Shown here: piece by piece, positions 249 to 57,240 of the stretch
Numbering within the stretch: the stretch's first letter is position 1
How the letters are laid out: each line of letters starts with the position of its first letter
Source: Amphiscolops sp. MND2022
Taxonomy: Eukaryota
Reading direction: 5' to 3'
Length of the DNA stretch: 64,000 nt
NCBI GenBank assembly: GCA_964187785.1
Contig: OZ076409.1
Coordinates: 45,076,001-45,140,000, forward strand
Position numbers and translations under genes: made by a program
Notes under the pieces: model-generated
What the model was told of the DNA's origin: nothing
The model's input: only the letters and a program-made list of their open reading frames with translations
Database searches by the model: none

Positions 249-391
249 GAAATAGCTTGATTTATACTTTCATATAAAGCGTTCTGAGCTCGTAGCGGCG
301 TTTACATCAGTTTGCTGAGTATGTATTAATGGGTAGGAGGTATTTCTGCACCAATTTAAAAATGAAATTGCGTTTCAAAGATACATATACA

Positions 392-19404: not shown

Positions 19405-19734
19405 GTTATATACAGTCTCTCTTCCGCTATATAGTATGCTAACAACATTCAAAAGTGTCTAAGTCTGGTAATACTTTGGCATATGTAAGCTATACGTGAT
19501 CCCTTCCAAGAGATAGAACCCTAACACTAGTCAAAAGCGGGTGAGATTGGATATACATGAGCATATACTGGGTATATGCAATCGATCTTCTGTATATGTA
19601 TCTTTGAAACGCAGTTTCATTTTTAAATTGGTGCAGAAATACCTCCTACCCATTAATACATACTCAGCAAACTGATGTAAACGCCGCTACGAGCTCAGAA
19701 CGCTTTATATGAAAGTATAAATCAAGCTATTTCA

Positions 19735-19814
19735 GCTCACCGTGGCCCAGTGGTAAGCCATCTGACTCCGACCCCACCGGTGCGAGTTCGAGCCCCACCA
19801 ACCAAAATGTTTTT
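19735..19814 (+). ncRNA. tRNA-derived Pol III unit (A box, B box, T-run terminator) in the right terminus
   Basis: A box TGGCCCAGTGG at 19743-19753, B box GTTCGAGCC at 19786-19794, TTTTT at 19810-19814. TCTGACTCCGA resembles the tRNA-Trp anticodon arm. No acceptor stem can form, so it is not a functional tRNA. Confidence 0.6.
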
Positions 19815-19876
19815 CTACTTTAATTTAGGACCCGACTACGCTGAAAACTCAAGGCATACACACCACCACTACTCAC

Positions 19877-19949
19877 GCGTTCGTGGTCTAGTGGTAAGAT
19901 GCTTGCTTTTCAACCCAGAGGTTTCGTGTTCGAACCCGTGGGTATGCGC
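19877..19949 (+). other. tRNA-Gly-like degenerate sequence at the insertion site, heading an AT-rich interspersed repeat body (to ~20450)
   Basis: GCGTTCGTGGTCTAGTGGTAAGATG...GTGTTCGAACCC has A and B boxes and a 5' end resembling tRNA-Gly(TCC). It is followed by TTTTCGGCACTATGAGACT motifs shared with the HINE-like family, including an 18-bp tandem repeat at ~20002-20062. Confidence 0.55.
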
Positions 19950-20858
19950 TAATTTTTTTACAAGTATTCCGAAGCAGAAGGTTCTGACTTTTTTCGGCAC
20001 TATGAGACTTTTCGGCTTTGTGAGACTTTTCGGCTTTGTGAGACTTTTCGGCTTTGTGAGACTTTTTTTTCGAAATTTTTTAAATGTCCCCAAAGAGTCC
20101 TCCTCTCAATTTTTTTTGATATTTTGCAAGAGAACGAATGTTAAAAAATCCCGAAGGGTCCCTTTTTTCAGAATTTTCGGCACTATGAGACTGTTCAAAA
20201 TTCTAATTTTTTTTCAAAAAGTTTTCAGACTCCCTTATTTTTTTCAAAATTTTTTTAATGTCCCCAAAGCGTCCTCCTTTCAATTTTTTGATATCTTGCA
20301 ACAGAACGAATGTTATAAAATCCTAAAGGGTCCCTTTTTCACATTTTTCGGCACTATGCGACTTAGCGGAAACTTCAAAAAAATTCGAAAAAAAAGTTCG
20401 GAGAATTTTTTCTCAATTTTTAGTTTTAAAAGACCGTTTTTTTAAAGACCGATCTTTTTTCTAGAAAAAAAAATATATATACCACATGGATATTTGATTT
20501 TGCTCCATCGCCAGGGTGGTCACTACTACTACCACTCGGGGTAGGCATTGATGAGACTCAAGCGCACGACACGTGTCGCTGAGAATAATCTGGGATAAAT
20601 TGAAACTGGGAAAATCAAACCCCGGTTTCAGTACGCGCGGTCCTTATAAGAAAGAGAGGGAAAGAAAAAAAAATTGGGAATGACTTTCAAATTCTTTGAC
20701 ACACGAAAACTAAGCGAAAAGAGATGAACCTTTGTCAAATCAATTTATTATGATCAAAGTGATTGGTTGCTGTATATACAATGTATATGAGTGTATGTTG
20801 TTTTTCAGATGGGTGATTTTGAATAATTTTACGAGGGTCACAATAGAATTGGCTGTCG

Positions 20859-23591
20859 ATGCCATTGACGGAAGCGCAGCAGCAAGTAATTGCCGAGAAA
20901 AGACGCTTGGCTTTACAGAAGCTGCAAAACGCAAAGAACAATCAAAACATTCCAAAACCAGTGTCCGCTCATTCATATTTTCCAACTTCAACACCCGCGC
21001 AGCAACCTACCATCCAAAAACCAACCTCAACTAGTAATCCCGGAAAACCAGCAGCGGCTATTTTTGGGAGAGGAAATGCAATTCCATCTAGCTGGAAAGG
21101 GAGCCCATCCGTTCAAAATTCCTTCTATGGAAGCGCGGCTTCACAAAATAGTGGCAAAACCAATGGGATAGCCTATAATAGTTTCGGAGGAGTCAAGCGG
21201 AAGTTTGAAAACACTCCTTGGGATAATTCCGCGGGATCAAAGAATTATAAACAGTCAAGTGGAACCAATGGCTGGAAGAAATTGGGATACAAGGATGGAA
21301 AATTGGAGGTGAACTTGGTTCTAGTTTCAGCCACTCATTTTGAAATCCGCAGCAAATTTGACAGCGATCTTGTTGCGCTAATCAAGACATTACCCCACCG
21401 AGAATATGATACATTGAGCAAATACTGGAAATTTCCATTTTCAATATATGATAATGTTTTATCGAAACTACAAAGCTCACCCAATCTCCAGATGACATTA
21501 ACAACTCCTCCTAAATTCATGTACAAATTGGCGGAGAATTATTCCAATTTCATAAAAAGGTTAGAGACGTTCAAACTAGATTGGAGCAAATTGCCAAATT
21601 CTGATCAACTTATGCCTTTCCAGAAAGAGGGAATAAGTTGGGCAATATGTCGCAACGGGCGAGCAATCATTGCCGATGACATGGGACTGGGTAAAACTGT
21701 TCAAGCGCTCATGTCTGCGTATTATTTCAAAAACGAGTGGCCTCTTCTGGTTGTATGTCCCTCTTCATTGCGCAATACCTGGGCCGATGCGGTTGTGCAA
21801 TGGCTACCTGATGTGGATCCTGGCGCAATTAGCGTTATTTACACAGCCAGTGATGCCCATTATGACTACAAACCCGAAGTTGTTATTGTGAGTTACTCAA
21901 TGGCTCCGAAAGTCAAAGCCGAGTTGTTGAAGACCAGTTTCAAAGTTGTGATTCTCGATGAGTCACATTTTGTAAAAACTGGGAAAGCTTTGAGGACCCA
22001 AGTTGTTCAGGAGTTGGTGCGAAGTACGCCTCGCTTGTTGTTGCTATCAGGAACCCCTATGTTGTCGAAACCCATTGAAATGTTTACCCAATTGCAACTT
22101 CTTGACAGGGCGTCATTTACTAGTCAAATGATATACGGTACCCGTTATTGTAATGCAAGACAGCAACCATGGGGCATGGATTATAACGGGTCGTCTAACT
22201 TAGAAGAGTTCAAGGTGCTTTTGACATATTGTGGATTTTTGAGACGGATGAAGAGCGAAGTTCTGTCACAATTACCCCCAAAAACAAGAAAGATTATTTC
22301 TCTGGATAAAAACGCAGTGAAGACCAAGGATAAAGGGTTCGCCTGTTTGTCCAAGAAGGTTTGCAGTTTAGAGGCTAGTAAATTAATGAGTGCTCAGAAT
22401 AAACAAATTCTTTTCGAATATTACAACGCTTCTGCTCTAGCGAAATTACCGGCAGTCATAAATTACATAACTGAGATTTTTGAAAGTGGAGTTGAAAAGT
22501 TTCTGCTTTTCGCGCACCACGTTGAAATGTTGGATGGGGTGAGCGACTATTTAAATAAAAATGACATCGATTTTATTCGAATTGATGGGAAGACTTTAGC
22601 TACTGATAGGCAACCTTTAGTTGATAAGTTCCAGACATCCTCGCAGTGCAAAGTTGCTCTTTTATCTATATCTGCAGCCAATACTGGGCTGACTCTCACA
22701 GCAGCTAGTTTAGTCATCTTTGCTGAGCTTTACTGGAACCCTGGAGACTTGATACAGGCTGAAGACAGAGCCTACAGAATAGGTCAACAGTGTAACGTCG
22801 TTGTACATTATTTAATTGCCGAAAAAACGGCGGATGATCAATTATGGCCGATGGTTAAGAATAAACTGGCAGTTATGAAACAAGCCGGTCTCACACATGG
22901 AGACGAGTTCAAAGATGCGGAGTACGGAATGCAGCAAGCAAAAGCTCCTGTGGGACAATCTACTTTGTCATTTTTTGAATCCTCGTCAAATTCAAAACGT
23001 TCTCTGGAGTCTAGAGATGAAGAAAGGGCTTCCTCGAAAACAATAGCTACCATTGAAAGCAAATCTGAAGCCTCGGGGATTAAGGAAGCGGATGCATCAG
23101 CGGTCACGGCCGATCTGACATTGACTCAATGGGACGCAGCTGGAAAGTTTGACGATGACCTCGGGGATCTTGCCGATGACCTCAATGATGATTGGGGTAA
23201 CGATTGCGATGACCTTGACCTCATACAGGCAGCTGATGATATTTTTGGTTCCCATATTCAAACTTGCAGAATCAGTGAATCTAACTGTGACAGCAATTGT
23301 CTATCAACATCGAAACTAGTTTCTTCTGAACCCGCCTCGTCGAAGGTCAAAGGCGTTTCCAATCAAACATCAAATGAAGTGACGGGAACCAGTAGTTTTG
23401 TAAGGACAATTCCGGGATCTTCGAATTCATATGAACTTTCTGCTGATTTAGATTTAACTCATTTGGAGAAGGAGAATGCGCTGAATGATGACAGTATTGT
23501 GTACTTGTCTGACGGAGATAGCAATGGAGATAGTCTGGCATCGGCAAAAATTTCTTCGCCCCAAATTGGCAAGAAACCTGAAGAGAATTGA
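20859..23591 (+). CDS. SMARCAL1: SMARCAL1/HARP annealing helicase (SNF2 family), 910 aa, single coding exon
   Basis: N-terminal RPA-binding motif MPLTEAQQQVIAEKRRLAL. One HARP domain (THFEIRSKFDSDLVALIKTLPHREYD...WKFP). SNF2 motifs ADDMGLGKT, DESH, LSGTP, RIDG, QAEDRAYRIGQ. Confidence 0.95.
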   Translation: MPLTEAQQQVIAEKRRLALQKLQNAKNNQNIPKPVSAHSYFPTSTPAQQPTIQKPTSTSNPGKPAAAIFGRGNAIPSSWKGSPSVQNSFYGSAASQNSGKTNGIAYNSFGGVKRKFENTPWDNSAGSKNYKQSSGTNGWKKLGYKDGKLEVNLVLVSATHFEIRSKFDSDLVALIKTLPHREYDTLSKYWKFPFSIYDNVLSKLQSSPNLQMTLTTPPKFMYKLAENYSNFIKRLETFKLDWSKLPNSDQLMPFQKEGISWAICRNGRAIIADDMGLGKTVQALMSAYYFKNEWPLLVVCPSSLRNTWADAVVQWLPDVDPGAISVIYTASDAHYDYKPEVVIVSYSMAPKVKAELLKTSFKVVILDESHFVKTGKALRTQVVQELVRSTPRLLLLSGTPMLSKPIEMFTQLQLLDRASFTSQMIYGTRYCNARQQPWGMDYNGSSNLEEFKVLLTYCGFLRRMKSEVLSQLPPKTRKIISLDKNAVKTKDKGFACLSKKVCSLEASKLMSAQNKQILFEYYNASALAKLPAVINYITEIFESGVEKFLLFAHHVEMLDGVSDYLNKNDIDFIRIDGKTLATDRQPLVDKFQTSSQCKVALLSISAANTGLTLTAASLVIFAELYWNPGDLIQAEDRAYRIGQQCNVVVHYLIAEKTADDQLWPMVKNKLAVMKQAGLTHGDEFKDAEYGMQQAKAPVGQSTLSFFESSSNSKRSLESRDEERASSKTIATIESKSEASGIKEADASAVTADLTLTQWDAAGKFDDDLGDLADDLNDDWGNDCDDLDLIQAADDIFGSHIQTCRISESNCDSNCLSTSKLVSSEPASSKVKGVSNQTSNEVTGTSSFVRTIPGSSNSYELSADLDLTHLEKENALNDDSIVYLSDGDSNGDSLASAKISSPQIGKKPEEN

Positions 23592-25473: not shown

Positions 25474-25735
25474 AGAAGTAACTTCTCAATTGGTGGTTTG
25501 CAATACAACATTTCCATGTCAGAATTTGCTGTTATTTCTAACATGGAAATAAAAAATGTAGTAAAAACAGTGTCGACGCTTACTTTTGCGTGTTAGTGTA
25601 TTAGATGATTATTTGAATGAAAACATTCCACATGCATTTTTTGTGAACTGCAGTGACGATTGTCATGAAAATGCACATTGTAGACAATGACACTAGATGT
25701 CACTTTAATTTCAGGCTTTTTCATGAGCAGATCAC

Positions 25736-26491
25736 ATGGCACAGTTTAAAATCGGAGATCGAGTCTTTGCCAGAGTCAGATCTTATCCCTTCTGGCCCGC
25801 GAAGATTGAGAAGCTTCCTATTGGTAAAAACAAGAAGTACACTGTGATTTTTTATTTCACTTTACAGTTGGGCTACATAGACAAAAATTCAATCGAGCCT
25901 TTCAACGATGAAACAATCGAACGCTTCAAGCCGTTATGCATATCAAAGAATTACTTCAGGGAATCTTTAGAAGATGCATTGGTTGACGAAGCGCAAGAAG
26001 GTGTTATAATTAGAAATGAGAGTGTCAAAATGCTGCCCCTGTATGAAGAGCCTACTGTGAAGAAGAAGAAAGTAGTTGTTGCGCCAATGGATATGGAAGT
26101 ACCAACAACGAGTGAGTCTTCAAGCGATTGTGTCAAAAGTCAAGCAAAGTCCAATTCCACAAGCACAAAGGCTGAGGTGAAGTTGGAGCCCATTTTGATG
26201 CCGGCACCGGAGGATCTTTTTACTCTGCATCTGGACCTAGTCAAAAGTCTTCATCATAAATCGCCTGATCACGAAAAAGCTTTACAGACAATGAGCAAAA
26301 TACAAACTTTTTTGGATTGGCCATCGTTAATAAAAACGGTCCCTGATTTGATAGATAGCATACACAAAATATCGAGGTACTCTAAAAACAAGCAAGTGCA
26401 GTTGAAAGGCGTGCATCTTTACAACAAAATGAAATGGACCCTGTTTTGTAATCGGGAGATAGATTTTTTGGAGAAACAGTTTCCTCTTTAA
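25736..26491 (+). CDS. LEDGF/p75-HDGFL2-like protein: PWWP domain plus integrase-binding (TFIIS-N-like) domain, 251 aa
   Basis: N-terminus FKIGDRVFARVRSYPFWPAKIE is a PWWP domain. C-terminus LHLDLVKSL...LIDSIHKISRY...QVQLKGVHLYNKMK aligns by eye with the LEDGF IBD (IHAEIKNSL...TLKKIRRF...MLYNKFK). Confidence 0.85.
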   Translation: MAQFKIGDRVFARVRSYPFWPAKIEKLPIGKNKKYTVIFYFTLQLGYIDKNSIEPFNDETIERFKPLCISKNYFRESLEDALVDEAQEGVIIRNESVKMLPLYEEPTVKKKKVVVAPMDMEVPTTSESSSDCVKSQAKSNSTSTKAEVKLEPILMPAPEDLFTLHLDLVKSLHHKSPDHEKALQTMSKIQTFLDWPSLIKTVPDLIDSIHKISRYSKNKQVQLKGVHLYNKMKWTLFCNREIDFLEKQFPL

Positions 26492-41018: not shown

Positions 41019-43533
41019 TGTTACGACATGCTAACGAGACGTTTTGAGTTGAACTTATCCTCACTGACTTCGTAGGGGTATAGAAGTTTCTTGTTTCCTC
41101 TTCTACTTCTTCCTCTGTATTCTCCCTAATGGTTCCCCTTGTTTCAGGTTTCAAGAGTTTCAACATTTCCTTCTGAGATTCGACAAGAAGATTCTTAATC
41201 TCTGATGTTATTTCCTCTTTCAAGGAAGCCCTTAAACTTTCTAAGAGGCTGTTCTCAATCCGGGGGGATTTTGAGTTAGAGGGCCCCGCTACCTCATCGT
41301 CCTGGTTTAAGGAACAAGGATTTCCTACTACTATGGGTGAAATTAAGCCTTCACTTACGTTCTCATTGGTGCTTTGCTGACCATTCCTTCTTTTCTGGCT
41401 TCTTGTTGTTGACATTTTGTAGAAAAGTTTGATCTTGAAGAATTGATTTCTTTCAGATATATTTTCTAACAAGGTAGAACAAGGCAAGAGTTTGATGAAA
41501 TTGAAAATTCAACTGAATTGTGCAATTACAAAAGACTGAGTCCCTCAGTTAGCTAAAATCATCGTATATATACCCTCCTAGCATCATTTGATCACGAGTT
41601 AAGTCCTAATTTCCTTCGAATAATTAGTCATTTCCTGTATTTTCGGTGCAAAAATCATTTTGTTCCCAATTTTACGTCGACATTCCGTCAAATTTTAAGA
41701 CACGGCAAATCTAATCTAGCATTAGTCATCAACCGTAATCATATTATTTCAGCTCGGCGTCCTTTTGTTTCCTCCCAAGCAGGAAGTAGATATTACTTCA
41801 GTCTGTCAAACCGGAAATATTTCCCTGTTTTGCTGCTTTGGTTCGCAAGAAACTGACGCTGAGGTGACGCCGGCATGAACAACTAATGCCTGAATTTTGA
41901 TATTTCGCTCGGGAAAAATGCTATGACTAATGTTTTCAGCTCTGTAATTTCCAATGATGCTAAGAAGGAAATGAAATTAAGATTAAAGAATTAGCAACAA
42001 CCTCGAATTAGTTTCAAATTAAATAATTAATGGTTAACAAAATAAAACAACGACACATTGACGCTTGATGGCTTGATAGACTAAATTGTCTAATTCAGAC
42101 TTCTGCCCCAATTTAATAATATTTCAATCACAAATGCTGACTGATATTATTTTAGCATTCATCCGATGAATATACATAACACTCTGTCAACAGATTTTAA
42201 CTTGCACGTAAAATAATATTTCGAACAAAAAGTTTGACGACGTGAGAACGGCACTTTGTGGATTTTCTGAACAAGCAAGAGTTCAAAACCTTTTATCATC
42301 AGATCTTAATCATTACAAAAATGTACAATAGCAACACAAACATTTATTCTGAATTTATGCACATTGGGGTCAAAGCAATGACCATCCTGATTAGGGGACG
42401 ACGACGTACCGGCGTCCAATTAAACACAACAAGGTAATAGCACACGCTTTATGTAGTACAAAATACAAACGTATGAAAATTTATTTCCAATACGAAAACA
42501 CTATCGATTTACTTTCGTCATGCCCATAAACTGTGACTTTCACCTACATTACACGGGGATTTCCATTTCAACTTAAGTTTTAGAGCAGAATTAACCCGGC
42601 AAAGGAAATATTTGACGGAAACGTGGCGTAGGTCCTCAAATTCCCTACTAATTGTCTTGTTAAATCACCAAACACTTTAAACTTATTCCTAGCACTAATT
42701 AGTTTGATTGATATTCATCATAACTTTTGGATGGATTAAAACAACTTGTTTTGATGGAATTTGGACGTACCGTGGACGTACGTATTAGTATTAGGCCTGG
42801 TCCAGAATAGTGGACGTAACGTGGACGCAAATTTGAAGTAAGAATTAGTCCGCGCCTAGAAGACAACACCGTGACGTCACTATGGCGGAAAATTGGAATG
42901 ATTTTAAGTAGTGTCACTAATATAGGCGGTAAATTGGAATGGTTCTCTAGTGAGCGCGGACGGAACGGTGACGTCACACTATATACTTTCAAGTCTGCTT
43001 CTTACCGACATCTAATATACATGTATTCTTTATTTTGTTTACTTAGCGCAGTGCCAACGTCCTAATCCGTACTAATTGCTGTTCAAAGTGCAATTAAGCT
43101 GCCTTTCTTAGAAAAGGAGTGAATATCTCAATGTGTCATCTCAATGTAGTTTCTATTTTAGATTCAGATAATGTCCTTTTTCCAATGGTGATTTTGGATA
43201 TATTTTCATTTAGATCGGTCTATGGTCTTTATTTCACGACGTGTTTTAATTTAGTTTTCAGGTGGCGAATGTTTCTATTTTGGCGCACTAAGGACGTCCT
43301 ACCGGATATGTGTGAAATCATCTTATTTCAAATTAGTTTCTGTTTTCATTTTTGTTTAAACTTTTCGTAAGTTGGACGTTCGTTTTCGTATTCTTAGTCA
43401 CAGTTTATTCCAAAGATAAGGTTTTAAAGTTACCAGTTAAAATAAGATTTGGGGAATCTCAGATTGCCTCCGTGACCTCTCCCGATCTTCAGTCGTCTGC
43501 AACCACAAGCCAGACCGGGAGCGGGCTGTGACA
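41019..43533 (-). repeat. 3' LTR (2515 bp)
   Basis: TGTTACG...TGTGACA. ORF-track entries 42699-42992/56406-56699 and 43119-43370/56826-57077 are identical. Confidence 0.96.
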
Positions 43534-44127
43534 GGGCCGCTCTAGTAGGAAGATTGACTCTGCCCGGGGCTCTGAGTTGTGAAGCAATTGTCGGAGTAGT
43601 GGCGACTGGCTGTACTCTCCTCTCCAAATCGTTCAAAGGACTTGACTGCAAGAAATTTATCATCCTTGGCGTTCCCGGCGGGGTGTTGAAGTAAGAAGAG
43701 GCGTCTTCCTGGTGCACTTTTTCGAGATATTCTGCTACTTTACTGCTCGTTGTCGATTCTTTATCGTCTGCCGAGGGTTCAACAACAAATATGTCAGATG
43801 ACAAGCTCTCATCAGGGCTCTCTGGAGAGTCGGCCATTACTTCTTCTTCGGGGCTTTCCGACTGTGGGTATTGACCCGATTCCACAGTTTCGAAGCTCGT
43901 GCTGAGTTTCATTCTTTTGCATTCAGCTTCCAGGGAGTCTAGAGAGAGGTCGAGAAATTCTTCCTCATCTGCAGTAGCTTCCGCAGACGAGTTCAGTATT
44001 TCGACAATTATTCTGGGATATTCTTTGTTGCCCTGGGTAGCGGGGTAGAAGCCCTCGTGATTTCACCTTCCTCTTCGCTTGACGACGAGATGTCGATCAA
44101 TTCGTATATATCTAGTAGATTATTCAT
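43430..44127 (-). pseudogene. Extra sense-strand acidic Ser/Pro-rich ORF (frameshifted near ~44050; 160-aa part at 43430-43912) running into the 3' LTR
   Basis: MNNLLDIYELIDISSSSEEEGEIT... (ATG 44127) shifts into a frame open through ...EEEFLDLSLDSLEAECKRMKLSTS...PKSYFNW*. Confidence 0.5.
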
Positions 44128-44282
44128 CTTCTTTGTGAGGTTTCTTTCCTTTTGCAGCTGTCGTTCGTATTTAATTGTCCCACAATGAATTTGGGATTAA
44201 TTAGGATTAAGGAGAATATTGGGATAAATCCCTCCATTCTGATTGGTTAATCAATCATTTTTAATCCTTTTAATCCTCGCGT

Positions 44283-44533
44283 GTTGACGTTATGTCAGCG
44301 TCGCGTTTTTATTGGCTGCAAATTAAAATAATCCGCTTAGCCAAACTTGTCAACGTTATGCTGACGTCATTCCGTTAGCTAGGCTAACTTTGTTTTGTCA
44401 TCGTTATGATGACGTCATTATAGATTATAGGATTAATTTTTTAACCCTAATAACCTTTTTGTCGACGTTATGCCGACGTCAATTTCGTTGGCGGTTACCA
44501 ACTTTATGTTTTGTCACCGTTATGATGACCTCA
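44283..44533. promoter_or_regulatory. Five copies of a GTCNNCGTTATG(N)2-3GACGTCA-like motif (CRE/ATF-like) in a putative bidirectional promoter
   Basis: Copies start at 44283, 44349, 44397, 44461 and 44513, with ATTGG (CCAAT) boxes nearby. The region lies between two divergent ORFs. Confidence 0.55.
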
Positions 44534-44564
44534 TTTTGGGTTTGTTTTCAGATTGTCCTTTGAG

Positions 44565-47500
44565 ATGTCTTCTTCTCATCGAGTGGACCTTGGTATGCAG
44601 AGTGGCAACGAGACACAGTACGTGTTTTCAGAGGGAGACGTGCATCCAAGTGATGCCGACAATGTTTGTCTGACAGCGGCAGGTGAGTTCATCATTCCCC
44701 GATCCATTAAGCTTTCGTGAATAATACTTTGCATAGTTAGGCCTTTTCCATGTTCGTATATTCACAGCTTAGATTTTCTGACGCGTCGATGATGGGAATG
44801 TGTGTTCTTTTTAGTTCCTGTTACGACTTCCGTCGTCCCTGCGCCAACTGTTCCCCCTGAGAAAGTCTCTGTTGTGGGTGCTGTTGTTTCTGCGTCGCCT
44901 GTACTTCCTGTTGAGGTTCCTGCTGCTACCGTTGTCGCTTCTGATCCGCCTGCTCCTACTCTTGGAAATGCTGATGCATCTGCTGGCGTAGCTGCTTCAT
45001 TGGTTTGTGCTTCTTCTCCCGTTCATCAAGAGGACTCAGATGTGCCTCTTTCTACATTCCTTGCAAGGCCAGCCAACACTGGGTTCATTTCTCCTCGCGA
45101 AGGTGAGGACGTCTGCCCCCCTGCAGAGAAAATGGGAGATGCGGACGGGAAAACCGGTCCAGAGAAAGAAGCTGGCAAGAATTCCAAGACTTCTCCATGT
45201 TTCTCGCGATATTTGCCTGATTTTGCCGCAACCTTTGGCATAGGGGAATCGCCTCCTGTTCAAAGCGAGTTTTTCATAGTTTGTTTTCCTTTTGTGAGTG
45301 GGGGGGTTTCGAAATTTCATGGGAATGAGGTGGCTTTGTGCTATTGGCGTATTTGGAGTTTGCCTGTTCTTATAGGTGCCTCATCCAAACCTGCTGTGTC
45401 CTCTGGGAAGCGACGTCGCACCGTCACTATGTCCACTGTTGCGCAGTCTCAAACTTTCCAGATTGAAAGTAGTGGGGGTGAGGAGTCGCGTGCCGGAGTC
45501 GCCGCTTATACGTCTCAACAAGCTGCTTTGTTCGGTGAAGCTGTTGCCTCTGAGTTGGAGACCCGGACTGTGGAGCCGTTTGTTGCGAGTTAGTAGATCT
45601 TTTTTACCTTATCAGTGTTTGTCTATGTCGTGGCAGATGATAGTGAGTTTTTGAGATAAGTTATCTGTTGTAGGTAGTTCAGTTAGGTTGATTGTCTGTA
45701 TGTTTGTTGTAGAATTTGAAGAGCTAGTGGCACGAGTAGAGACGAGCCTCGAGAATGTCAGTCCGTCACGACGACGATCACGTCCTCAGAATCCGCAGAA
45801 ACGTTTGCGGCGCAGCATGGTTAAAGAGCACCCTGCGTTTGAGCTATTCGTGAGCGGGTCGAGTTCTGGGGTTGAGACTGCTTTCTTCTGCACTATCTGC
45901 CAGCGGGACGTCTCGATTGCGACCAAGGGTATCCGCGAAATTAGCCGACATTTCTCGAGTGATAAACATTGGGCGCTCGATGTAACTTATCGTGTCCATC
46001 AAGGCTTGCAGGTTTACAACAAGTTGCTAGACCCGATGGAATTGAGCGACGCGCAGACGCGGGATTACTTAGCCCGGCCCTTCAAAGAGAAACCCGAAGG
46101 CTTCAGCTTTCCTGAAGACCTCTTGCCGGCTTGTACCCGGGTAGATTCAAGTGTGCCTCTCATTACAATGATAAACTGTCTGGTCGAGCTTCTACGAAGT
46201 GGCGGTGATTACCTTCTGCTGAGGAAATTGTGGGGGCATTTCCGAGCTACGCTGGGCACAGATAGTCCTTTGTACAGTTTGACGTGGAGCCGGGGAGAAT
46301 CTTTGGTGAGTTTTATTATTATATTTCCTTGACAACCGCATTTTCCTGTTTTTTTTCTCTTCCTCTCTTTTTGTTTTTTGAAGTCTTCCTCTTTTGTCGG
46401 GGTTCATCATGGTTGTCTTTGTACTAAGTTGTTTTTGGTATGTTGTAGTCATTGCTGTGCCAAGGCTTGTTCCCTCGTGTTCTCCGTGTGCTGATCGCTC
46501 GGATTGGCGAATTCAAGTGCTACAGTGTTGTCTTCGTGGACCTGAATGGCGGGAAACAGTGTCTTGTGCGGACATGGGAGAAACACGTCATGCTGGAAGT
46601 GTGCGTCGATGTGCAGACGGCAGGCCAGCGCATCCCACTGGCTGAATTGAATTCTCTGTCCTGCATCTTGGGAAGTGTTCCTGGCGGTCAGTTGCCGTTG
46701 TCTGTGGAGGGCGCAAGCCCCTCATTGCTTCGAGTGCTGAGTGATAGTCGTAAAGATGGTCATCAATTTATTCTCAGCCGTAATTTTACTGAGGAAGCTT
46801 TTCTCAGTTGCTATCGGCAGGCCCATCAGGAGGTGTTGGGTATGATGGAAGTCACTGCGATGATCGACTACCTGATGCTGCGCTTGAGAGGTGCTCTGCG
46901 AGAACCTTGGCTCGAAGATGCTGCTGTGCTCCGTCGCTGTGTGGTCGCCGGCCGGGTGTCTTTCAAAGATCTCCGTGATGTCGCCTCTGAGTTGATCCCT
47001 GTGTGGAATTCTGTGAGGGAGTTCGTCCGCTACACAGGGCCCCGCCACATCAAAATCGAAACAGATATGGTTAGTATTCTTGGTTTCTGTTGGCTCATTT
47101 GTGTGATAATTTTCTTTTCCTCCTGTTTCGTTTCTTTCTCTTTTCTTTTTCGGGGGGGGGGGGGGGGGTTGCGAGATCAGAATGGGCGCAAGTGTACCTT
47201 TATTGTTTTGTTGTAGATGAGAGGCACTGACAGTCAGGTTTATTGCGACAATACGAATCGGCTGCGACTGGGACTCCTTGTGCACATGCTCGACCTTTGT
47301 AAGTGGACGTCGTCTTGTCGTCATTCTTTGTGATTGATGGTCGGTATAAGTAATTGTTGTTTAGATCGTAATAATAGTTGTACCTTCAAGAAACAGTTGT
47401 CTGGGCGTGAGGACTACGGTTTTCACTGCTACATGGAGATTTGTCAGTTTGTGTACTGCTTGCTTTCCCGTACCCGTCAGCTTTCTGAGTTGCCTGATCT

Positions 47501-48572
47501 TCACGACTGGGAGGCCTATATGGATGTTACGAAAATTGAAAAATTCAAGAAGATTGACACTACTGACTTTTTATTGAGTCACGATTTCGGAGAAGAATTG
47601 CAGCGAGGGAAGACTGGAGAGATGCAGGAATTTCGTAATCGCTGTCGGGAATTTATGGATCGTTTGGTGGACGTGCTTCTGGAGTCTAGCCTTGTTTCGT
47701 CAGATTTCTTGCAAGGCGTTTATGCTTTTTGCCCTGAACTTTTGCTTGAAGGCGATGATCGTTATATCTTCCGACTGTTCAGTAAGTTGTTGCGTGTCCT
47801 GGAATGCAGCGGCGCTCTAAGCAGTGAGGAGGCCAAGTCTGGTTCGGAAGAGTTTGTGACTTTTGTTGTAGACGCACGACGCCGTCATGCCGATTCTGAG
47901 AGTAGTGCTGAAAAGATTGCAGATGTCGTGAGTTATCTCCTCAATGATTATAGTTTCTTGGCACGGAAGGATTTGTGTCGTATTTTGAAGTTATGTTGCT
48001 TGGTCATTCGTCGTCCCGCTTCCGGATATCCTGACGTAAATATCTCTCTGGAAGGTTGTGTCGTGCCTGCTTCTGTCATTGCTTCCTGTTTACGTGGGGT
48101 GCAGAGTTACGTTCGAGGTCCTGAGTTTAAACTGGGGGCTTTTTTCACACAGCATACCATGGATTGTGTTCGCGATTCTGTTGCTGGGGCCCGAGATTTC
48201 ATGACTGTCGCTTCCAGTTTTGATCCATGGAGTCGTGTTTGTGTGAGTGATCGTGCTGAGTTCGTTCGTCACTACAGCGCACTATTTGAGGCTCACATTG
48301 CCCGCAAGAAAGATGAGTCGTATCAGCGATTTCGAATTGCCAATCAACGTGTACATAGTAGTTCTGTTGGTGTTAATGTATTTCCTACGCCGTCCTGTAG
48401 TCGTTCTGCATGTGGAAGCTCGTCAGCTGTTGGGGGTGTTTCTTGTAAGACGCCCGCTAAACGATCTGTTGTCCAAACGTCAAAAGAAGCAAAGAAGAGT
48501 GAGTCATCTGCCAAGAGTACGAAGAAGGGGTCAAAGAGACAGTCGAGTGGTTCTTCTAGCTCGAAAAAATGA
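44565..48572 (+). CDS. Antisense spliced gene inside the retrotransposon, ~1094 aa, zinc finger, hAT-transposase-like; exons 44565-44682, 44815-45264, 45376-45588, 45713-46305, 46449-47069, 47217-47298, 47365-48572
   Basis: All six introns have GT (one GC) donors and pyrimidine-rich TAG acceptors with consistent phases (1,1,1,0,0,1). The spliced length of 3285 nt is open. CTICQRDVSIATKGIREISRHFSSDKH is a C2H2-type finger of the kind at hAT-like transposase N-termini. Confidence 0.8.
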
Positions 48573-48708
48573 TGGATTTATATTATTGTATTGAACTTTG
48601 TTGGTTTGTTTATGTACTTTCTTTGTTTATTTCTGTTCAAGTAGACATTTGTAGTATTAGTATGGAGTTGTATTTGGAAAAATTGTAGTATGTCTATAAT
48701 TGAAGTTG

Positions 48709-51700
48709 TCAGATCGGTTCGGTCTGGACTCCAGATGATATGTTTTCGTCTTCCGTAGTCGTAGTTATAGCGTCAAGACGTCTGAAGTCAGGCTTAGCGT
48801 TAGGTTTAGGGTTAGGTCTCAAGTTATACTTTGCTATTTTCCTCGGGTTATATCCGACGTTTGTAGGCGGTGATCTTGGGGGAATAGGTGGACTTTCAAC
48901 GGGTGGGGGGCGGCGTATGTATGGATTGTCCCCCGCGTCAGTAGTGAGATTTGAAAAATCCGGAGATGGCGGTGTTACGTCATTCGTGTCTTCAGCTTGA
49001 TTATCGGTTACTTGTTGCGTGATCGTTTCGCCATTTGTGTTCGGCACTTCTTGTGTGACTGTTTGTTGGTTATGTTCTGTACTTTTTGTCATTTCGTGCT
49101 CGTCAATTTGTTAGCCAAAATCCATTTCCCATGATACCGCATACCATTCATTGTGTGAGACTTTGACTTCTGGGTCAGGAAGGTAATTGTCGGCTCGTAC
49201 TGTGACGTCAGGCAAGCGTTGTTCTGGCACGTAAGGTCGTATGCGAATTCTGTGTAGTGTTTGTGTATATCTTGTGCCAATTTTTCGTATTGTGTAGTTG
49301 TTGTTTGAGAGCACTTTGATTACTACATACGGTCCTGTCCAGATGCAATCTTGAAACGCAAACTTTGCCGCTTGATTGTCGGCTTTCGGGTTGAGTATAT
49401 AGCAGTAGTCGTTAATTTTCAATGGAGCTGCGGTCGCTTTGCGGTCGTAGTATTTTTTGTATTTGAGGTAAGATAGCATGATGTTGTCTTTTGCCGTCGC
49501 TCTCACTTCGTCGATTTGTTTTTGGAGTTGTTCTGCTATATCCGAGTGGGGGGTGGTTTTCCACTTTGGCTTGATGCCTAGTTTTAAATCAAGAACGTTG
49601 TAAGGTATACGTCCGTGAAATACTGTAGACGGTTCGCAGCCCAGAGTTTCATGGTATGTTGTATTGTAATTCATCACTGCGATTTGGACATATTTGTGCC
49701 ACATTGAGCGTCGTTCGCCCGTTGATATTTTTAGAGCAGTTTTGATTGAAGCGTGCGTTCTCTCCAAAATTCCGATTGTTTGTGCATGTTTTGTAGCTGC
49801 GTGGCTGATTTGAATCTCGAGTATTTGGGCTATTTCTGTGACGACTTCTGATCGAAATTGTGAGCCCTTGTCTGATAGGATTAGTGTTGGCAAGTATGCA
49901 TGTCTTGTCATAACGTCGACAATGCATCGTCCGATTGTTTTCGCTGTGACATTCTGCGTTGGATATGCAAATAGGTAACGTGAAAATACGTCGATCATCG
50001 TAACGATCTTCTGGTATCCTGCAGAGTTTGGCAAATTTGGTAGTATGTCAATTTCAAGAATGTCCTCCGGACCAAGGACGTGTTCCGTATTGTTGATCAT
50101 TTTCGGTCTGATTTGGCTGTTGTTGATTCGTTTGTATTTGATGCAGTCTTCGCATTGCATTACCCACTGTCTGATCCTCTTTGCTAATCCGGGGTAGTAA
50201 TACTTTGATCGGCATTCTTGGATCATTTTTGTGATTCCTGGGTGCTTTCCCATTTGTCCATGAATTGCTTTCAAGAGTTCTGTGATTAAATGTTCAGGGA
50301 TTAAAATTTGATGGTGAGTGACTTGGCCACATTCCCCGTAGTATTTGCGCATTAGTATTCCATCTTTCACTATTAGTCTGTTCTCGTGGAGTAGGAGACG
50401 TTTAGCTGTCGGATCGGTCTGTAGAAGGTGTTTGTCGTATTCTTCACATATCAGTTTCTTTTTGATTGCTTTGAAAACCAAATTCGAGTCTTGTTCGACT
50501 CTAATGCGTGCGTCTTCTTTTATTGCCCCAAAAGTATAAGATGCTTTATTTATTGGAATTGGGGTGGTTTCTTTGATGGCTAGTTTAATTTTGGGCGTCC
50601 CCTCGTCGCGCGCATTTTGTCTAGCTTGTTCCTTCTGCAATAGGATTTCTTCTTCTGTTTCAATTGTTTCATCCGGAAGGAAGAAAAGTTGTTCCTCATC
50701 CGCGACGTCCGTTGATTGAAGATTCACTTGAATTGGCCTGATTGTAATATCCTCTCTGATTTTTAGCTCAACTCTTTCTTTGGGATTGAGATCAATTCTT
50801 GAGAGGAAATCGGCCGCCGTGTTTTGCGTACCCGCGACGTGCATTATGTGGAAGTTGAATTGTAATACATAATCACATGCATTCCACAGAGTGGGCGGGA
50901 TCGCTTTTGTTTGAAAAAAAACGCGTTACTGATCTGTTGTCGGTCATCACGAGAGTTGGTAGGGTTGTTTCCCATAGAATATGGCTGTATTCGAGGAAGG
51001 CATGATAGATTGCTAGGAATTCCTTGCAATAGATTGACATTTTGATTTGGGCCGGGGAAAACACTTTTGATCCAAATGCGACTGGTGCAAATGTCTTCTT
51101 TTTTGAATTGAGTTTTTTGTCATTGTCCTCTTCAATCATTAATGCATAGCCGGAGGCTCGAAAGCTGGCATCCGTCATTAGGACGTATTGACGTCCTGTG
51201 ATTGGTTGTTTGAGAGCCAATCCGCAGGCTTGCGATAGCGCTGCGTTGATCGCCTTGTAATGGTCGAGTAGTTCTTCAGTGATTTTAATTTGTTTATCTG
51301 CTTTCAGCAGCTCATAGAATCCGAGTAATTTTTCAGATAATCGCGGGATGTAGTTGCGATAATAATTGACAAAGCCGATGTATCTTTGTACTTGTTTCTT
51401 TGATTTCGGAAATCGTATATTTGCTAGGAATTTTTGAATTTTATGATCCTGCGGGGCGATTCCTTGTGGTGTGATCGTTCTTCCAAGGAATTCGACTTCG
51501 GTTACTCCGAAATGGCATTTTTCGATGGTTAATTTGAGTCCCGCTCTTCTGATACATTCAAAAACTGCTCGAATGTTGCGTATCAGTTGCGCCACAGAAT
51601 TGGCCGCTATTCCGATGTCGTCCACGTACTGCGCGCATTGATCGGCTTTGATTACTTTATCCAAGTATTCTCGCATGAAGCTTGAAAATGCCGACAGTGC

Positions 51701-53692
51701 TCTGCTCAGTCCTTGTGCTAGGCGTTTGTAGGCGAACGTTCTGCTTGTAAAGTTGAAAGCTAGCATTTCGATTGATCGTTGGTCTGCCATCTGTAGGCAA
51801 TGATATGCCTGTGAGCAGTCTAATTTGCAAAACAACTTTTTCCCAGCTAGGTGTTGGGCTGCATCTGACAGGGTGCTGACTGGGTGGTTATTGTTGATGT
51901 AATCATCTGAGATTAGTGCGTTTATTTTTCGTAGGTCGACGAGTAGTCGTAACTTGCCATTCGGTTTGCGTTGTGCGAAGATTGGGCTTGCATATTTTGA
52001 GAATGGTAGGGTCGTTATTATGCCGTACCTATGCATTAGTGCTAACTCGACTGTTAGATCTTCTTTCAGGTTGATTGGTACCGGCAAGCTTTGCGTGTAA
52101 ATTGGACGCTCGTCTTTCGGAGTTAGTTTGACTTTGAAGCTATTGTTGATTCCAATGTCAAGGCGATGGCGGGCAAAGATATCATTGTATTCGACTATTG
52201 TTTGCTCGAGTTGCTTCCTGTCGTTGCCTTCAATTTGAGAACCTTCCCATTGAAACATGTCGAGGAACTTTTGTCTTGAATCCTGGTCTTTGGTTGGGTC
52301 TAATTCTTCTCTCTGTTTTAGTTCACGGATTTCCTTCAGGATCCGTCGTTGGATTGGCGTATGTTCTTCTTCGTTTCCCGGATTCTCAGGTGTGGGGAAC
52401 CAGAAATTTTCATCACCTTGTTCAGTTTCGTTGGCTTTCATGAGTTCATTGACGTACATGTGGGTGTCATCAGGATCTTCTAGCAATTTGAGTGCGGCGG
52501 CGTCTACTGGTCGTATTTGTTTCGTGTCCTCGGGTCTGAGGATTTGTAGTTCAGCCAGTTTTGTGTGATTCTTTATTGTATGAGGGAAATCCGTTAAGTT
52601 GGCGATTCGGATGTTGAGCCTTTTATTGTGGGCTGTCGCTAGTGCTGGTGCAACAATGATTGTTGCTGCTTCATCAAATTGTGGTAGTGGTTGTACCGCT
52701 CCAGTGACGTCATGCATGTTTGTGGTTATTACTATTGCGTTCACTGTTGTTGTTTGTTGGGGCGGTAGGGTTTAATTTCCTTCTGCCATTATTTGGAGCG
52801 GTTTCGGGTTGCATTTTTTCATCTCGTCCGTCATGGCTAGCGTTATTTCGACGTGCGGGAAATTGATGGTTCCGTTGGCAGTGTCAATTACTGCTTGGTG
52901 ATTTCTCATGAAGTTCAATCCTATGATAGGGAATGACGTTTTCGATAGGATGACGAAGGTATCTGTGAAGGTATATGTTCCAATATTGAACTGGATGTCC
53001 GCTGTGGCTATTGGTTGCTCTAGTTGGGCGTTTGCGCATTCGATCTTGAAGGGAGGTTGAGGGTATTCTTTTATGACACAACTATCACTGTTCATTTTGA
53101 TTGCGTTGTAGTCTGACCAGGACATGGCATTGATGAACGCGCCTGAGTCGACGAGTCCATCCATTGTTATCTCGCCGAATTCGAGTGGCAAATACAGCAT
53201 TCTCCTTCTATTCTTGAGGACTATGGTGGAATGGAGGGGTATGTATGTTTCCCCATCCTTTTCGGCTACGTACTCCTTGATTGAGTTGAGTGATGTGGGA
53301 AAATCGTCTGTGGACAGAAATGCTGTGGAGGAGTTGTGGTTATCTCCTTCAATCTGTTGTGACGATGGGCGGTCGTCGGGGGCGTTTTCATTTTGTTCTA
53401 ATTGGTTTGCAACGGGGAGTTCTCTGTTGATGAGGGGTAAGTTGGTAGGAAGATTTGCTTGTTTAGGATTGTCCCTGTAGTCTTTATCGTGAGTGTAGGT
53501 TTCTGCTTGTTCAGTTTGTGGATATGGCCTTTTTATAGAAGCGAGTGCTTGTCGTCTTAGCCAGTCTTCTGTTGGTGTGCCATTGCATTCAATCGTTGTG
53601 TTGTTAACATATGTGGTGGGGGGATCCTCGGTTGAATACGCCCTCGCGTCTACTTTTTCCCCAAAACGCAGGCGCGGCGTAATTAGTTTTTT
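48709..53692 (-). pseudogene. pol: Pol (aspartic protease, RT, RNase H, integrase), entered by -1 frameshift and interrupted by two stops and one frameshift
   Basis: LVDSGA (PR), YVDD (RT), TDAS...E...TDN (RH), H..H..CxxC and DDE core (IN). In-frame TAA at 52772-52774 and 49111-49113. Frameshift in the A8 run near 50913-50920, possibly a sequencing error. Confidence 0.92.
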
Positions 53693-55122
53693 GGTTCGGA
53701 GGCAAAGTCGGTTGTTGTCAGCTGGTCTGGGGTGTCCCTTTTTTGTTCCTGTGTAGTGTGGCGCTTGGGACGCGGATCGTTGGCAGCATTGGCTCCATTC
53801 CAACAATTTTCTGTTTTGTGGGGCTTGCCGCACGTGTCGCATTTAAATGGTTTGCCTGAACTGCTGCTGGTTTGGCCATTGTTTCTCTTGGTTTGCATCC
53901 ATTTATCTCTTTTCATTTTCCTACACTCCGCTTTGTAGTGTCCAAATTTGTTGCAGTAGAAGCAATACCCTTTCTTGGTGTTTCGCGTCGTGTTGTCGGC
54001 CTGTTTGGACTCAGTGTTTGGTGGGGCCGGTTCTACATTGTTTAGTGGTACCAGGTTTACTTCATCTGACGCCCCGAGGCCGTTAAGTCTCATTTCCCTT
54101 TCTAGATGCAGTACGATGTCGTTGTGGGGTTTGTCTTCAAGGTACGCTCTATTTAATATTTTCTTTACATGGTCTGGCATTTTTGCATAGATCGCCTTAT
54201 CAATAAATTGTTGGGCTTCAGAGCCGAAGGCTTCTTTGGCGGTTTTTTGAAGTACATCCAGAAATTCGTGGAGTTTCTGGTTCGAGTGATCGAATTTGAG
54301 CGCATCCCATTCGCATCTGGCCTTTGCCATGGACAAATAATCTCCGAAACGTCGTTTGAAAATCGTCATGATTTCATCAAGGGAATCCTTTTTCGTGTCT
54401 CCGATATTACAAAATGCTTGTAAAGCATCTCCTCTGAGGAGGGAGTGGAAGTAGTTTATTTTTTGGATTTCCGTAAGGTGTGGGTACATTTTGATATTAT
54501 TGCGAAAAAGGTCTTCGAAAAGCTCGAATTTTTCCGACTTCCCATCGAAGGTCGGGAATGACGTCGTGAGTGCTTTTGGCATGGGCAGAGTAGTGCCATC
54601 ATTTTTATCTGTTGCAAATAAAGTCCTTGCCGCTACTGGACGTTCTTTTGACGGCGGTTGGCTCTGAGACCTGGCTTTTGTTCTTTTTGGCTGGTTTGTG
54701 GAATCGGTTAGGACTCCTGTCACCATGTTACGACATGCTAACGAGTCGTTTTGAGTTGAACTTATCCTCACTGACTTCGTAGGGGTATAGAAGTTTCTTG
54801 TTTCCTCTTCTACTTCTTCCTCTGTATTCTCCCTAATGGTTCCCCTTGTTTCAGGTTTCAAGAGTTTCAACATTTCCTTCTGAGATTCGACAAGAAGATT
54901 CTTAATCTCTGATGTTATTTCCTCTTTCAAGGAAGCCCTTAAACTTTCTAAGAGGCTGTTCTCAATCCGGGGGGATTTTGAGTTAGAGGGCCCCGCTACC
55001 TCATCGTCCTGGTTTAAGGAACAAGGATTTCCTACTACTATGGGTGAAATTAAGCCTTCACTTACGTTCTCATTGGTGCTTTGCTGACCATTCCTTCTTT
55101 TCTGGCTTCTTGTTGTTGACAT
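53683..55122 (-). CDS. gag: Gag (479 aa from MSTTRSQK) with two CCHC-type zinc knuckles; starts inside the 5' LTR
   Basis: PTFDGKSEKFELFEDLF capsid-like segment; CFYCNKFGHYKAEC and CDTCGKPHKTENC; ATG at 55122. Confidence 0.9.
   Translation of the reverse strand: MSTTRSQKRRNGQQSTNENVSEGLISPIVVGNPCSLNQDDEVAGPSNSKSPRIENSLLESLRASLKEEITSEIKNLLVESQKEMLKLLKPETRGTIRENTEEEVEEETRNFYTPTKSVRISSTQNDSLACRNMVTGVLTDSTNQPKRTKARSQSQPPSKERPVAARTLFATDKNDGTTLPMPKALTTSFPTFDGKSEKFELFEDLFRNNIKMYPHLTEIQKINYFHSLLRGDALQAFCNIGDTKKDSLDEIMTIFKRRFGDYLSMAKARCEWDALKFDHSNQKLHEFLDVLQKTAKEAFGSEAQQFIDKAIYAKMPDHVKKILNRAYLEDKPHNDIVLHLEREMRLNGLGASDEVNLVPLNNVEPAPPNTESKQADNTTRNTKKGYCFYCNKFGHYKAECRKMKRDKWMQTKRNNGQTSSSSGKPFKCDTCGKPHKTENCWNGANAANDPRPKRHTTQEQKRDTPDQLTTTDFASEPKN
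54713..54725 (-). promoter_or_regulatory. Primer-binding site (probably tRNA-Leu)
   Basis: TGGTGACAGGAGT immediately follows the 5' LTR; one mismatch from TGGTGTCAGGAGT, the complement of the tRNA-Leu(CAG) 3' end. Confidence 0.7.
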
Positions 55123-57240
55123 TTTGTAGAAAAGTTTGATCTTGAAGAATTGATTTCTTTCAGATATATTTTCTAACAAGGTAGAACAAGGCAAGAGTTT
55201 GATGAAATTGAAAATTCAACTGAATTGTGCAATTACAAAAGACTGAGTCCCTCAGTTAGCTAAAATCATCGTATATATACCCTCCTAGCATCATTTGATC
55301 ACGAGTTAAGTCCTAATTTCCTTCGAATAATTAGTCATTTCCTGTATTTTCGGTGCAAAAATCATTTTGTTCCCAATTTTACGTCGACATTCCGTCAAAT
55401 TTTAAGACACGGCAAATCTAATCTAGCATTAGTCATCAACCGTAATCTTTTTATTTCAGCTCGGCGTCCTTTTGTTTCCTCCCAAGCAGGAAGTAGATAT
55501 TACTTCAGTCTGTCAAACCGGAAATATTTCCCTGTTTTGCTGCTTTGGTTCGTAAGAAACTGACGCTGAGGTGACGCCGGCATGAACAACTAATGCCTGA
55601 ATTTTGATATTTCGCTCGGGAAAAATGCTATGACTAATGTTTTCAGCTCTGTAATTTCCAATGATGCTAAGAAGGAAATGAAATTAGGATTAAAGAATTA
55701 GCAACAACCTCAAATTAGTTTCAAATTAAATAATTAATGGTTAACAAAATAAAACAACGACACATTGACGCTTGATGGCTTGATAGACTAAATTGTCTAA
55801 TTCAGACTTCTGCCCCAATTTAATAATATTTCAATCACAAATGCTGACTGATATTATTTTAGCATTCATCCGATGAATATACATAACACTCTGTCAACAG
55901 ATTTTAACTTGCACGTAAAATAATATTTCGAACAAAAAGTTTGACGACGTGAGAACGGCACTTTGTGGATTTTCTGAACAAGCAAGAGTTCAAAACCTTT
56001 TATCATCAGATCTTAATCATTACAAAAATGTACAATAGCAACACAAACATTTATTCTGAATTTATGCACATTGGGGTCAAAGCAATGACCATCCTGATTA
56101 GGGGACGACGACGTACCGGCGTCCAATTAAACACAACAAGGTAATAGCACACGCTTTATGTAGTACAAAATACAAACGTATGAAAATATATTTCCAATAC
56201 GAAAACACTATCGATTTACTTTCGTCATGCCCATAAACTGTGACTTTCACCTACATTACACGGGGATTTCCATTTCAACTTAAGTTTTAGAGCAGAATTA
56301 ACCCGGTAAAGGAAATATTTGACGGAAACGTGGCGTAGGTCTTCAAATTCCCTACTAATTGTCTTGTTAAATCACCAAACACTTTAAACGTATTCCTAGC
56401 ACTAATTAGTTTGATTGATATTCATCATAACTTTTGGATGGATTAAAACAACTTGTTTTGATGGAATTTGGACGTACCGTGGACGTACGTATTAGTATTA
56501 GGCCTGGTCCAGAATAGTGGACGTAACGTGGACGCAAATTTGAAGTAAGAATTAGTCCGCGCCTAGAAGACAACACCGTGACGTCACTATGGCGGAAAAT
56601 TGGAATGATTTTAAGTAGTGTCACTAATATAGGCGGTAAATTGGAATGGTTCTCTAGTGAGCGCGGACGGAACGGTGACGTCACACTATATACTTTCAAG
56701 TCTGCTTCTTACCGACATCTAATATACATGTATTCTTTATTTTGTTTACTTAGCGCAGTGCCAACGTCCTAATCCGTACTAATTGCTGTTCAAAGTGCAA
56801 TTAAGCTGCCTTTCTTAGAAAAGGAGTGAATATCTCAATGTGTCATCTCAATGTAGTTTCTATTTTAGATTCAGATAATGTCCTTTTTCCAATGGTGATT
56901 TTGGATATATTTTCATTTAGATCGGTCTATGGTCTTTATTTCACGACGTGTTTTAATTTAGTTTTCAGGTGGCGAATGTTTCTATTTTGGCGCACTAAGG
57001 ACGTCCTACCGGATATGTGTGAAATCATCTTATTTCAAATTAGTTTCTGTTTTCATTTTTGTTTAAACTTTTCGTAAGTTGGACGTTCGTTTTCGTATTC
57101 TTAGTCACAGTTTATTCCAAAGATAAGGTTTTAAAGTTACCAGTTAAAATAAGATTTGGGGAATCTCAGATTGCCTCCGTGACCTCTCCCGATCTTCAGT
57201 CGTCTGCAACCACAAGCCAGACCGGAAGCGGGCTGTGACA
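54726..57240 (-). repeat. 5' LTR (2515 bp)
   Basis: Direct repeat of 41019-43533 at offset 13707, with roughly a dozen substitutions seen by eye and no indels. Confidence 0.96.

Follow-up and report, generated by a model that had tools for sequence, protein, structure and literature searches.

The locus analysed here lies in a stretch of 64,000 nucleotides (nt) from Amphiscolops sp. MND2022 (contig OZ076409.1, positions 45,076,001 to 45,140,000), referred to as the window. It is occupied by a young Ty3/gypsy-type long terminal repeat (LTR) retrotransposon (41019-57240, minus strand) that carries, between the end of its integrase and its 3' LTR and antisense to pol, a gene of seven exons (44565-48572, plus strand), here called the cargo gene. 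As a sequence-only reading of the window had proposed, the exons are phase-consistent and give 1094 codons without a stop, provided that a GC donor is used at intron 2. The window copy was compared with 32 sister loci, 20 close and 12 distant copies, chosen to cover the identity classes. In the splice model, all on the plus strand, exon 1 (44565..44682) holds the start codon, exon 2 (44815..45264) is of low complexity and rich in S, A, P and V, with the GC donor after it in this copy, and exon 3 (45376..45588) includes a basic cluster at amino acids (aa) 201-204 that may be a nuclear localisation signal. Exon 4 (45713..46305) encodes a CxxC-x16-H-x5-H finger and a helical region, and is homologous to the N-terminus of hAT5-like transposases. 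Exon 5 (46449..47069) encodes a helix and three strands that match the opening part of the RNase H-like core of the transposase, the positions of the first and second catalytic aspartates not being conserved, and then helices. Exon 6 (47217..47298) is contiguous with exon 7 in 5 of the 12 distant copies, and exon 7 (47365..48572) encodes an all-helical domain, a serine/lysine-rich tail and the stop; it is homologous to the C-terminal half of hAT5-like transposases, and the region of the third catalytic residue is not conserved. The predicted protein would accordingly run from a low-complexity stretch (the first 260 aa) through the finger (321-347), the helix and three strands opening exon 5 and a long helical body to the serine/lysine-rich tail. 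The finger ligands are invariant or nearly so in 20 copies; the sequence-only reading had recognised the CxxC and H-x5-H pairs correctly but had given the spacing between them as x17, and the peptide segments which it quoted are present in the translation.

The carrier has paired LTRs of 2515 nt with TG..CA ends and 11 mismatches in 2515 nt, and a 5-bp target site duplication (TSD), within the 4-6-bp range, GTAGG, which closes the left flank of the 3' LTR (41019..43533, minus strand) and opens the right flank of the 5' LTR (54726..57240, minus strand). Pfam matches follow the Ty3/gypsy order (gag, Asp_protease, RVT_1, RT_RNaseH, Integrase_H2C2, rve), and the assignment is based on this domain order and not on a reverse transcriptase tree. 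A gag open frame (DUF1759, zinc knuckle; 53683..55215, minus strand) starts inside the 5' LTR, and pol (48709..53842, minus strand) encodes protease, reverse transcriptase, RNase H and integrase with a C-terminal tail. The three lesions that the sequence-only reading saw in pol are all real: an in-frame stop at 52772-52774, read through in one sister copy, a frame break near 50873-50925, and a premature stop at 49111-49113, where the flanking motif is present and the frame continues in 28 of the 32 sister loci. A primer-binding-site-like sequence that begins with TGG (54708..54725, minus strand; no matching tRNA assigned) directly abuts the 5' LTR and lies inside gag, as the gag frame begins within that LTR (54708-55215). 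The stretch before the 3' LTR (43534-43565) is conserved, yet is not a plain purine run of the polypurine tract type.

Twelve combinations of donors and acceptors were tried for the cargo gene, of which two gave an open frame (1094 aa, and 1107 aa via an upstream acceptor for exon 4). The introns are 66-147 nt long and T-rich (39-54% T vs 25-32% in the exons). The donor of intron 2 is a non-canonical GC in the window copy and canonical in 20/20 other copies, so that the 'intact' frame of the window copy presupposes GC-AG splicing. When introns were projected onto 19 copies (the 20 close copies minus one with a site that did not project), 113 of 114 had GT..AG ends, though intron lengths vary, and in five copies compared the identity of introns 2-5 was 44-71% vs 57-81% for exons 2-5. 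Of the 19 modelled copies, 9 keep a full frame after splicing (1037-1102 aa), with intron phases that agree at all six positions, and 10 are broken. Introns 4 and 5 occupy identical positions in distant lineages, and intron 6 is missing in 5 of the 12 distant copies, which belong to two separate lineages. Two distant relatives from another assembly, the database proteins P0110 and P0151, share 23-29% identity with the cargo protein; P0110 lacks introns 5 and 6 and aligned in one frame over junctions 5 and 6 (E 3e-32), and no close match to it was found in this genome (best 29%). Natural sequences thus confirm two junctions, that of intron 6 through the distant copies without it and junctions 5/6 through P0110. 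The precise absence of intron 6 in separate lineages would fit recombination with spliced complementary DNA, intron gain being the alternative. The cargo is almost certainly a functional spliced gene. In one distant copy (L061:5562-7810) exons 4-5 were tandemly duplicated.

The genome was searched over 1.07 Gb in 1929 contigs. With exon 7 as the query, 131 of 7392 candidates were scored and showed 69-100% identity, and a 24-nt degenerate cargo probe, which recovers 30 of the 32 known copies, gave 867 matches genome-wide vs 0 in the control. The cargo was antisense and just 3' of pol in all 32 chosen copies (20/20 close, 12/12 distant), with an integrase core within the 10-kb locus in 31 of them. 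In a check that did not depend on this choice of copies, along 1-69 Mb of one contig (C1), an integrase-probe match lay tail-to-tail 2-7 kb away from 35 of 49 cargo-probe matches, and on the same strand from none of the 49. Neither CAGGG-type ends nor an inverted pair of terminal inverted repeats (TIRs) was found around the gene. These observations bear out the claim that the cargo is carried by the retroelement rather than by a nested transposon, and support its being a stable part of the element family and not a one-off insertion. Eight diverged copies with intact frames were compared with the window copy for the ratio of nonsynonymous to synonymous substitution rates (dN/dS). Exons 4-7 gave 0.04-0.09 and exons 1-3 gave 0.24-0.35, some synonymous distances (dS) being saturated; integrase gave 0.04-0.07, similar to exons 4-7, and one near-identical copy gave 0.49, based on few changes. 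The check on other family copies that had been suggested thus came out in favour of the gene, which is under purifying selection. Selection was concluded from these between-lineage comparisons; an intact cargo beside a broken pol in one young copy is no evidence by itself. No intron-less exon 4/5 junction was found among the cargo copies covered by the 867 probe matches, which fits the earlier proposal that the introns survive because the gene is antisense, as follows from LTR replication. On a further contig (C149:10636-52847) four cargo copies are spaced at about 13.8 kb, which suggests a tandem array of whole elements.

The closest kin detected were the transposases, with a catalytic aspartate-aspartate-glutamate (DDE) triad, of hAT5-like elements in the same genome, to which the cargo protein is similar in colinear order. 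Searched with an exon-7 profile, a set of 2124 pieces yielded transposase fragments at E 1.8e-7 to 4.9e-5, and a set of 10,022 pieces yielded them at E 8.4e-7, where the best reversed-sequence control reached 0.39. An hhalign alignment of the C-terminal block covered 154 columns at E 1.5e-4, identity in the best block being 18%, the finger matched those of the kin transposases pairwise at E 2.6e-4, and for the helix and first strand of the core 6 of 1000 shuffles scored as well. Atlas features for exon 4 placed hAT-derived families at 0.83-0.85, which is a lead only. Nothing significant was found between the cargo and Ac- or Tip-type hATs, and the hAT dimerisation domain PF05699 had no Pfam match in 42 cargo members, nor do the kin transposases match it. 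The kin elements have CAGGG ends and TSDs of 5 bp in 12/17, 6 bp in 4/17 and 8 bp in none, and were called hAT5 from TSD length, ends and visible motifs rather than from a tree with named hAT5 sequences; the hAT groups hAT5 and hAT6, whose TSDs measure 5 and 6 bp, share a lineage with Blackjack (PMC12730594). The hAT origin claimed by the sequence-only reading therefore stands with moderate statistics, the kin being of hAT5/hAT6 type and not of Ac/Hermes or Tip type, and the 8-bp TSD that it named as the mark of a nested transposon was the wrong one. In a census of the catalytic positions over 99 rows, the first aspartate column held D in 0 of the 78 rows with a residue, the second was never D in 98/99 rows, and the glutamate region was variable in 71 rows. 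The triad is not conserved in the aligned cargo sequences, in agreement with the earlier suggestion of a probably non-catalytic protein. Colinear homology to hAT5/hAT6-type transposases is thus supported, and an origin from a hAT5-like transposase together with a non-catalytic state is considered very probable. By these alignments the donor transposon group would still be present in the genome: the sampled loci (L173-L198, e.g. L177:1318-2626 and L194:1160-3305) hold several hAT5-like families, every sampled copy being internally deleted and one family having both 5- and 6-bp TSDs. The transposases of these loci had no Pfam match.

A second accessory open reading frame (ORF), ORF3 (43430..44129, minus strand), is sense to pol, acidic and serine-rich, and ends inside the 3' LTR. 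It encodes 232-254 aa in most sister copies, is frameshifted near its start in the window copy, and had no Pfam match. Its N-terminus bears a hydrophobic-then-acidic motif kept even in the lineages that are most distant, which we take to resemble a SUMO-interacting motif, and its C-terminal Cys/Gly/Arg segment is partly LTR-encoded. ORF3 has allele classes of its own, which recombine independently of the cargo. The two genes are arranged head-to-head, and the segment between them (44130..44564, no strand assigned) is a candidate divergent promoter, with three CCAAT boxes and four copies of the repeat CGTTATG-NN-GAC(G/C)TCA, which occurs nowhere else in the window. The repeat contains a palindrome resembling the cAMP response element (CRE) that is also found in the LTRs; all 8 TGACGTCA palindromes in the window fall inside the element, 4 in the LTRs (two per LTR) and 2 in the promoter-like block. 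This block of about 450 nt is conserved above either flanking gene: in 17 close copies of other allele classes, 44063-44564 was 83-93% identical vs 70-82% for their cargo segments.

Cargo alleles have been exchanged as modules between backbones. For the same element pairs, dS was 1.0-3.4 or saturated in the cargo vs 0.06-0.57 in integrase, the extreme being one pair (L043/L045) with 3.09 vs 0.06, and the reverse pattern was observed between the window copy and L033 (cargo 0.01, integrase 0.12). Copies whose LTR and integrase match the window at 93-96% had a cargo only 70-76% identical. Trees of exon 5 and of integrase (25 sequences, 8 loci dropped for short matches) agree at deep nodes and are mutually rejected overall by the approximately unbiased (AU) test (p 1e-42 and 5e-5, with 2000 replicates, fewer than advised). 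Taken with the dS contrast, this indicates long co-inheritance with recent swapping. Frequent sweeps of pol would explain the swapping as well as selection for rare alleles does.

These results suggest the following course of events. An ancestor of this Ty3/gypsy-type clade would have captured the gene of a hAT5-like DNA transposon in antisense to pol, and the captured gene would have lost its TIRs and DDE residues and kept the zinc finger, the DNA-binding helices and the helical body. As the genomic RNA holds the cargo as its reverse complement, the splice signals go unread and the introns are copied along by reverse transcription. Transcription of the gene would start on integrated copies, at an internal promoter that also serves the head-to-head ORF3, and the transcript would be spliced as those of host genes are; being expressible from integrated DNA only, the gene points to nuclear action in trans. 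The product may thus be a nuclear, non-catalytic DNA-binding accessory protein acting in trans on family copies, and template switching between co-packaged RNAs may shift old cargo alleles onto new pol/LTR backbones. As the finger is retained, the triad lost, and basic clusters and a shared promoter-like block are present, the likeliest role would be that of an accessory factor in transcription. Its effect, perhaps with the help of ORF3, would most likely be to promote or license transcription of the family, either by transactivation or as an anti-silencing factor. A positive or anti-silencing role is preferred over repression mainly because a pure brake should vanish from a spreading family. 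To the demonstrated anatomy, co-mobility, selection, homology, triad loss and allele exchange, this explanation adds transcription, splicing, DNA binding, a direction of regulation and a role for ORF3, all of which are predicted from sequence; as a whole, the positive or anti-silencing role included, it is tentative and falls somewhat short of probable. It is possible, though doubtful, that the domesticated transposase and its partner ORF, which bears the putative SUMO motif, form on their shared promoter a swappable anti-silencing module, an exchangeable counter-defence cassette whose deeply diverged alleles would persist through frequency-dependent selection against host silencing, even as pol undergoes sweeps.

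Several observations weigh against this explanation. In the reverse count on C1, 65 of 100 integrase-probe matches had no cargo-probe match nearby, and genome-wide the integrase probe gave 1793 matches vs 867 for the cargo, so related elements may spread without this cargo; the wider clade takes in elements without the gene, with a more diverged version of it, or with deletions. The transposon copies behind the homology are deleted and fragmentary, and all come from one genome. Within this homology, the exon-5 profile had no match on transposase pieces (most of exon 5 is unmatched), 52 of 1000 shuffles aligned as well as the far C-terminus, and Pfam, PDB-sequence and Foldseek searches gave no match for any cargo exon. 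The second aspartate and glutamate columns of the census were set by eye from motifs, with a gap in the register at the first aspartate. In 9 hAT5-like elements no subterminal array of the promoter repeat was seen. CpG observed/expected ratios of 0.8-1.1 and CpG transitions at 1.6x other C/G transitions (in non-independent pairwise comparisons) amount to weak CpG decay, which argues against a role directed at DNA methylation. Alleles have in common a conserved finger exon and conserved promoter repeats, which differs from what a lock and key that co-evolve would show and argues against allele-specific recognition. Finally, splicing of the cargo is inferred from conservation, and its transcription and its protein product are predictions.

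Other roles would start from the same origin. A protein of opposite sign, a repressor or copy-number brake perhaps aided by pairing of the antisense RNA with genomic RNA, would suit the antisense position and the CRE-like palindromes in the LTRs, and non-catalytic transposase forms acting as repressors are known. Antisense proteins of human T-cell leukaemia viruses (HTLV), HBZ and APH, suppress 5' LTR transcription (PMC10186651), and antisense RNA silencing has been proposed for plant antisense ORFs (PMC7264820). A trans-acting brake is, however, a shared good that deletion mutants escape, yet the protein dN/dS of 0.04-0.09 is close to the 0.04-0.07 of integrase, and a repressor is considered unlikely. 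The retained finger and basic clusters, and co-inheritance with integrase at deep nodes, would also be expected of a protein that anchors the integration complex on selected DNA or chromatin, or that aids its nuclear entry, the latter having been proposed for plant antisense ORFs (PMC7264820); but cargo alleles swap freely on near-identical integrases, as in L043/L045, and copies are scattered along the listed contigs, so that a role at the integration step is distinctly unlikely. An indirect benefit, as a dominant-negative decoy against competing hAT5-like transposons or a host defence factor or by action on germ-line host genes, was suggested by the past mobility of hAT5-like elements in this genome (many internally deleted copies with clean TSDs) and by the persistence of many old alleles. 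Mixed oligomers are unlikely at the extreme divergence from the resident transposases noted above, and this alternative is improbable.

Points in favour of residual nuclease or transposase activity at a displaced active site come from the census: D or E occupies the column that follows the first aspartate in 68 of 78 rows, which also counts against the loss of catalysis, and a C and an H near the CxxH region are common (79 and 75 of 99). With a second aspartate column that is never D, a variable glutamate region and no TIRs around the gene, such an activity is very improbable. A one-off nested DNA transposon or neutral passenger shares with the preferred explanation only the transposase ancestry; it has next to no probability against 867 probe matches vs 0 in the control, a position fixed in 32/32 copies and a dN/dS near 0.06, and was refuted by the fixed position and dN/dS. 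A transcriptional accessory factor thus remains the preferred explanation.

Plants and fungi also have LTR elements with an antisense ORF in the interval from pol to the 3' LTR, the origin and function of these ORFs being described as unknown (PMC7264820, PMC11963269). The plant aORF-3R (Retand TRP28, maize Grande gene23, RIRE2) is kept in most copies, DNA binding or regulation has been proposed for it, and an internal promoter as well as a nuclear product are described for Grande gene23 (PMC7264820, PMC11963269); the sequence here shows a conserved promoter-like block and basic clusters. The present gene shares the antisense position between pol and the 3' LTR, though only 35 of 100 wider-clade integrase matches pair with it. 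It differs in the absence of a detected TRP28 domain (PF04195), in its six introns (the main text of the Retand paper does not contain the word 'intron'), and in its length of about 1100 aa with a traceable DNA-transposase origin; according to a 2020 review, no similarity of plant antisense ORFs to other transposons had been found (PMC7264820). With hAT5/hAT6 transposases the cargo shares, by its sequence, an N-terminal C2H2 (BED-like) zinc finger, the helix-strand core start and the C-terminal helical block in the same order. It differs from them in having no DDE triad, TIRs or TSD of its own, in its 260-aa low-complexity N-terminus and in being borne by an LTR element. Host-domesticated hAT proteins (ZBED, FAM200, GTF2IRD2, ZNF862, DAYSLEEPER) are transposases turned into non-mobile DNA-binding proteins, whereas here a second transposon would be the domesticating 'host', and the gene, present in hundreds of copies, has remained mobile. 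VANC proteins of plant Mutator-like elements are anti-silencing accessory genes that target DNA methylation. The ORF3s of bdelloid LTR elements are accessory genes thought to help elements against host control, and no antisense multi-intron gene was seen in the portion of that study drawn on here (PMC5408684). Both belong to other protein families, and there is little sign of DNA methylation here.

Spliced antisense accessory genes of an LTR retroelement in animals are also provided by HTLV-1 HBZ and HTLV-2/3/4 APH, nuclear regulators of LTR transcription, and these narrow the earlier claim that no multi-intron animal equivalent was known (PMC10186651). The HTLV products are small, mostly resembling basic leucine zipper (bZIP) proteins, transcribed from the 3' LTR and not transposase-derived (PMC10186651), whereas the cargo has an internal candidate promoter and six introns, and no bZIP or env match was found by Pfam among the ORFs of the element. 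Oikopleura Tor elements have internal promoters for a third gene (PMC4402516), and giant DNA transposons are known to carry accessory genes on the opposite strand (PMC12477816). An antisense gene derived from a transposase and holding six introns was not found in any LTR element in the literature searched, which did not include Repbase Reports, subscription journals or supplements. The present case would be one of a transposon class domesticated by another, suggesting that one jumping gene turned another into its own regulator, and traces the origin of an antisense ORF, a standing puzzle, to a DNA transposase. It also indicates that a retrotransposing element can retain, and apparently lose or gain, spliceosomal introns over a long time. 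Since the family offers copies in the hundreds, many of their frames intact, and several alleles on the same backbone, the function and the exchange of accessory genes are directly testable.

Outside the element, the window holds a very large inverted repeat (105-8002 and 10266-19877), with 97-99% complementarity between its arms and satellite arrays of 83/166 nt at its outer ends. An assembly gap of 200 N (8897-9096) lies near the centre of this repeat (105-19877), which might be a foldback element or an assembly artefact. Two intron-less frames were also observed on the plus strand: a 914-codon SNF2/HARP helicase frame, SMARCAL1-like (20847-23591), and a frame with a PWWP and a LEDGF-type domain, HDGF/LEDGF-like (25727-26491), about 15 kb from the element.

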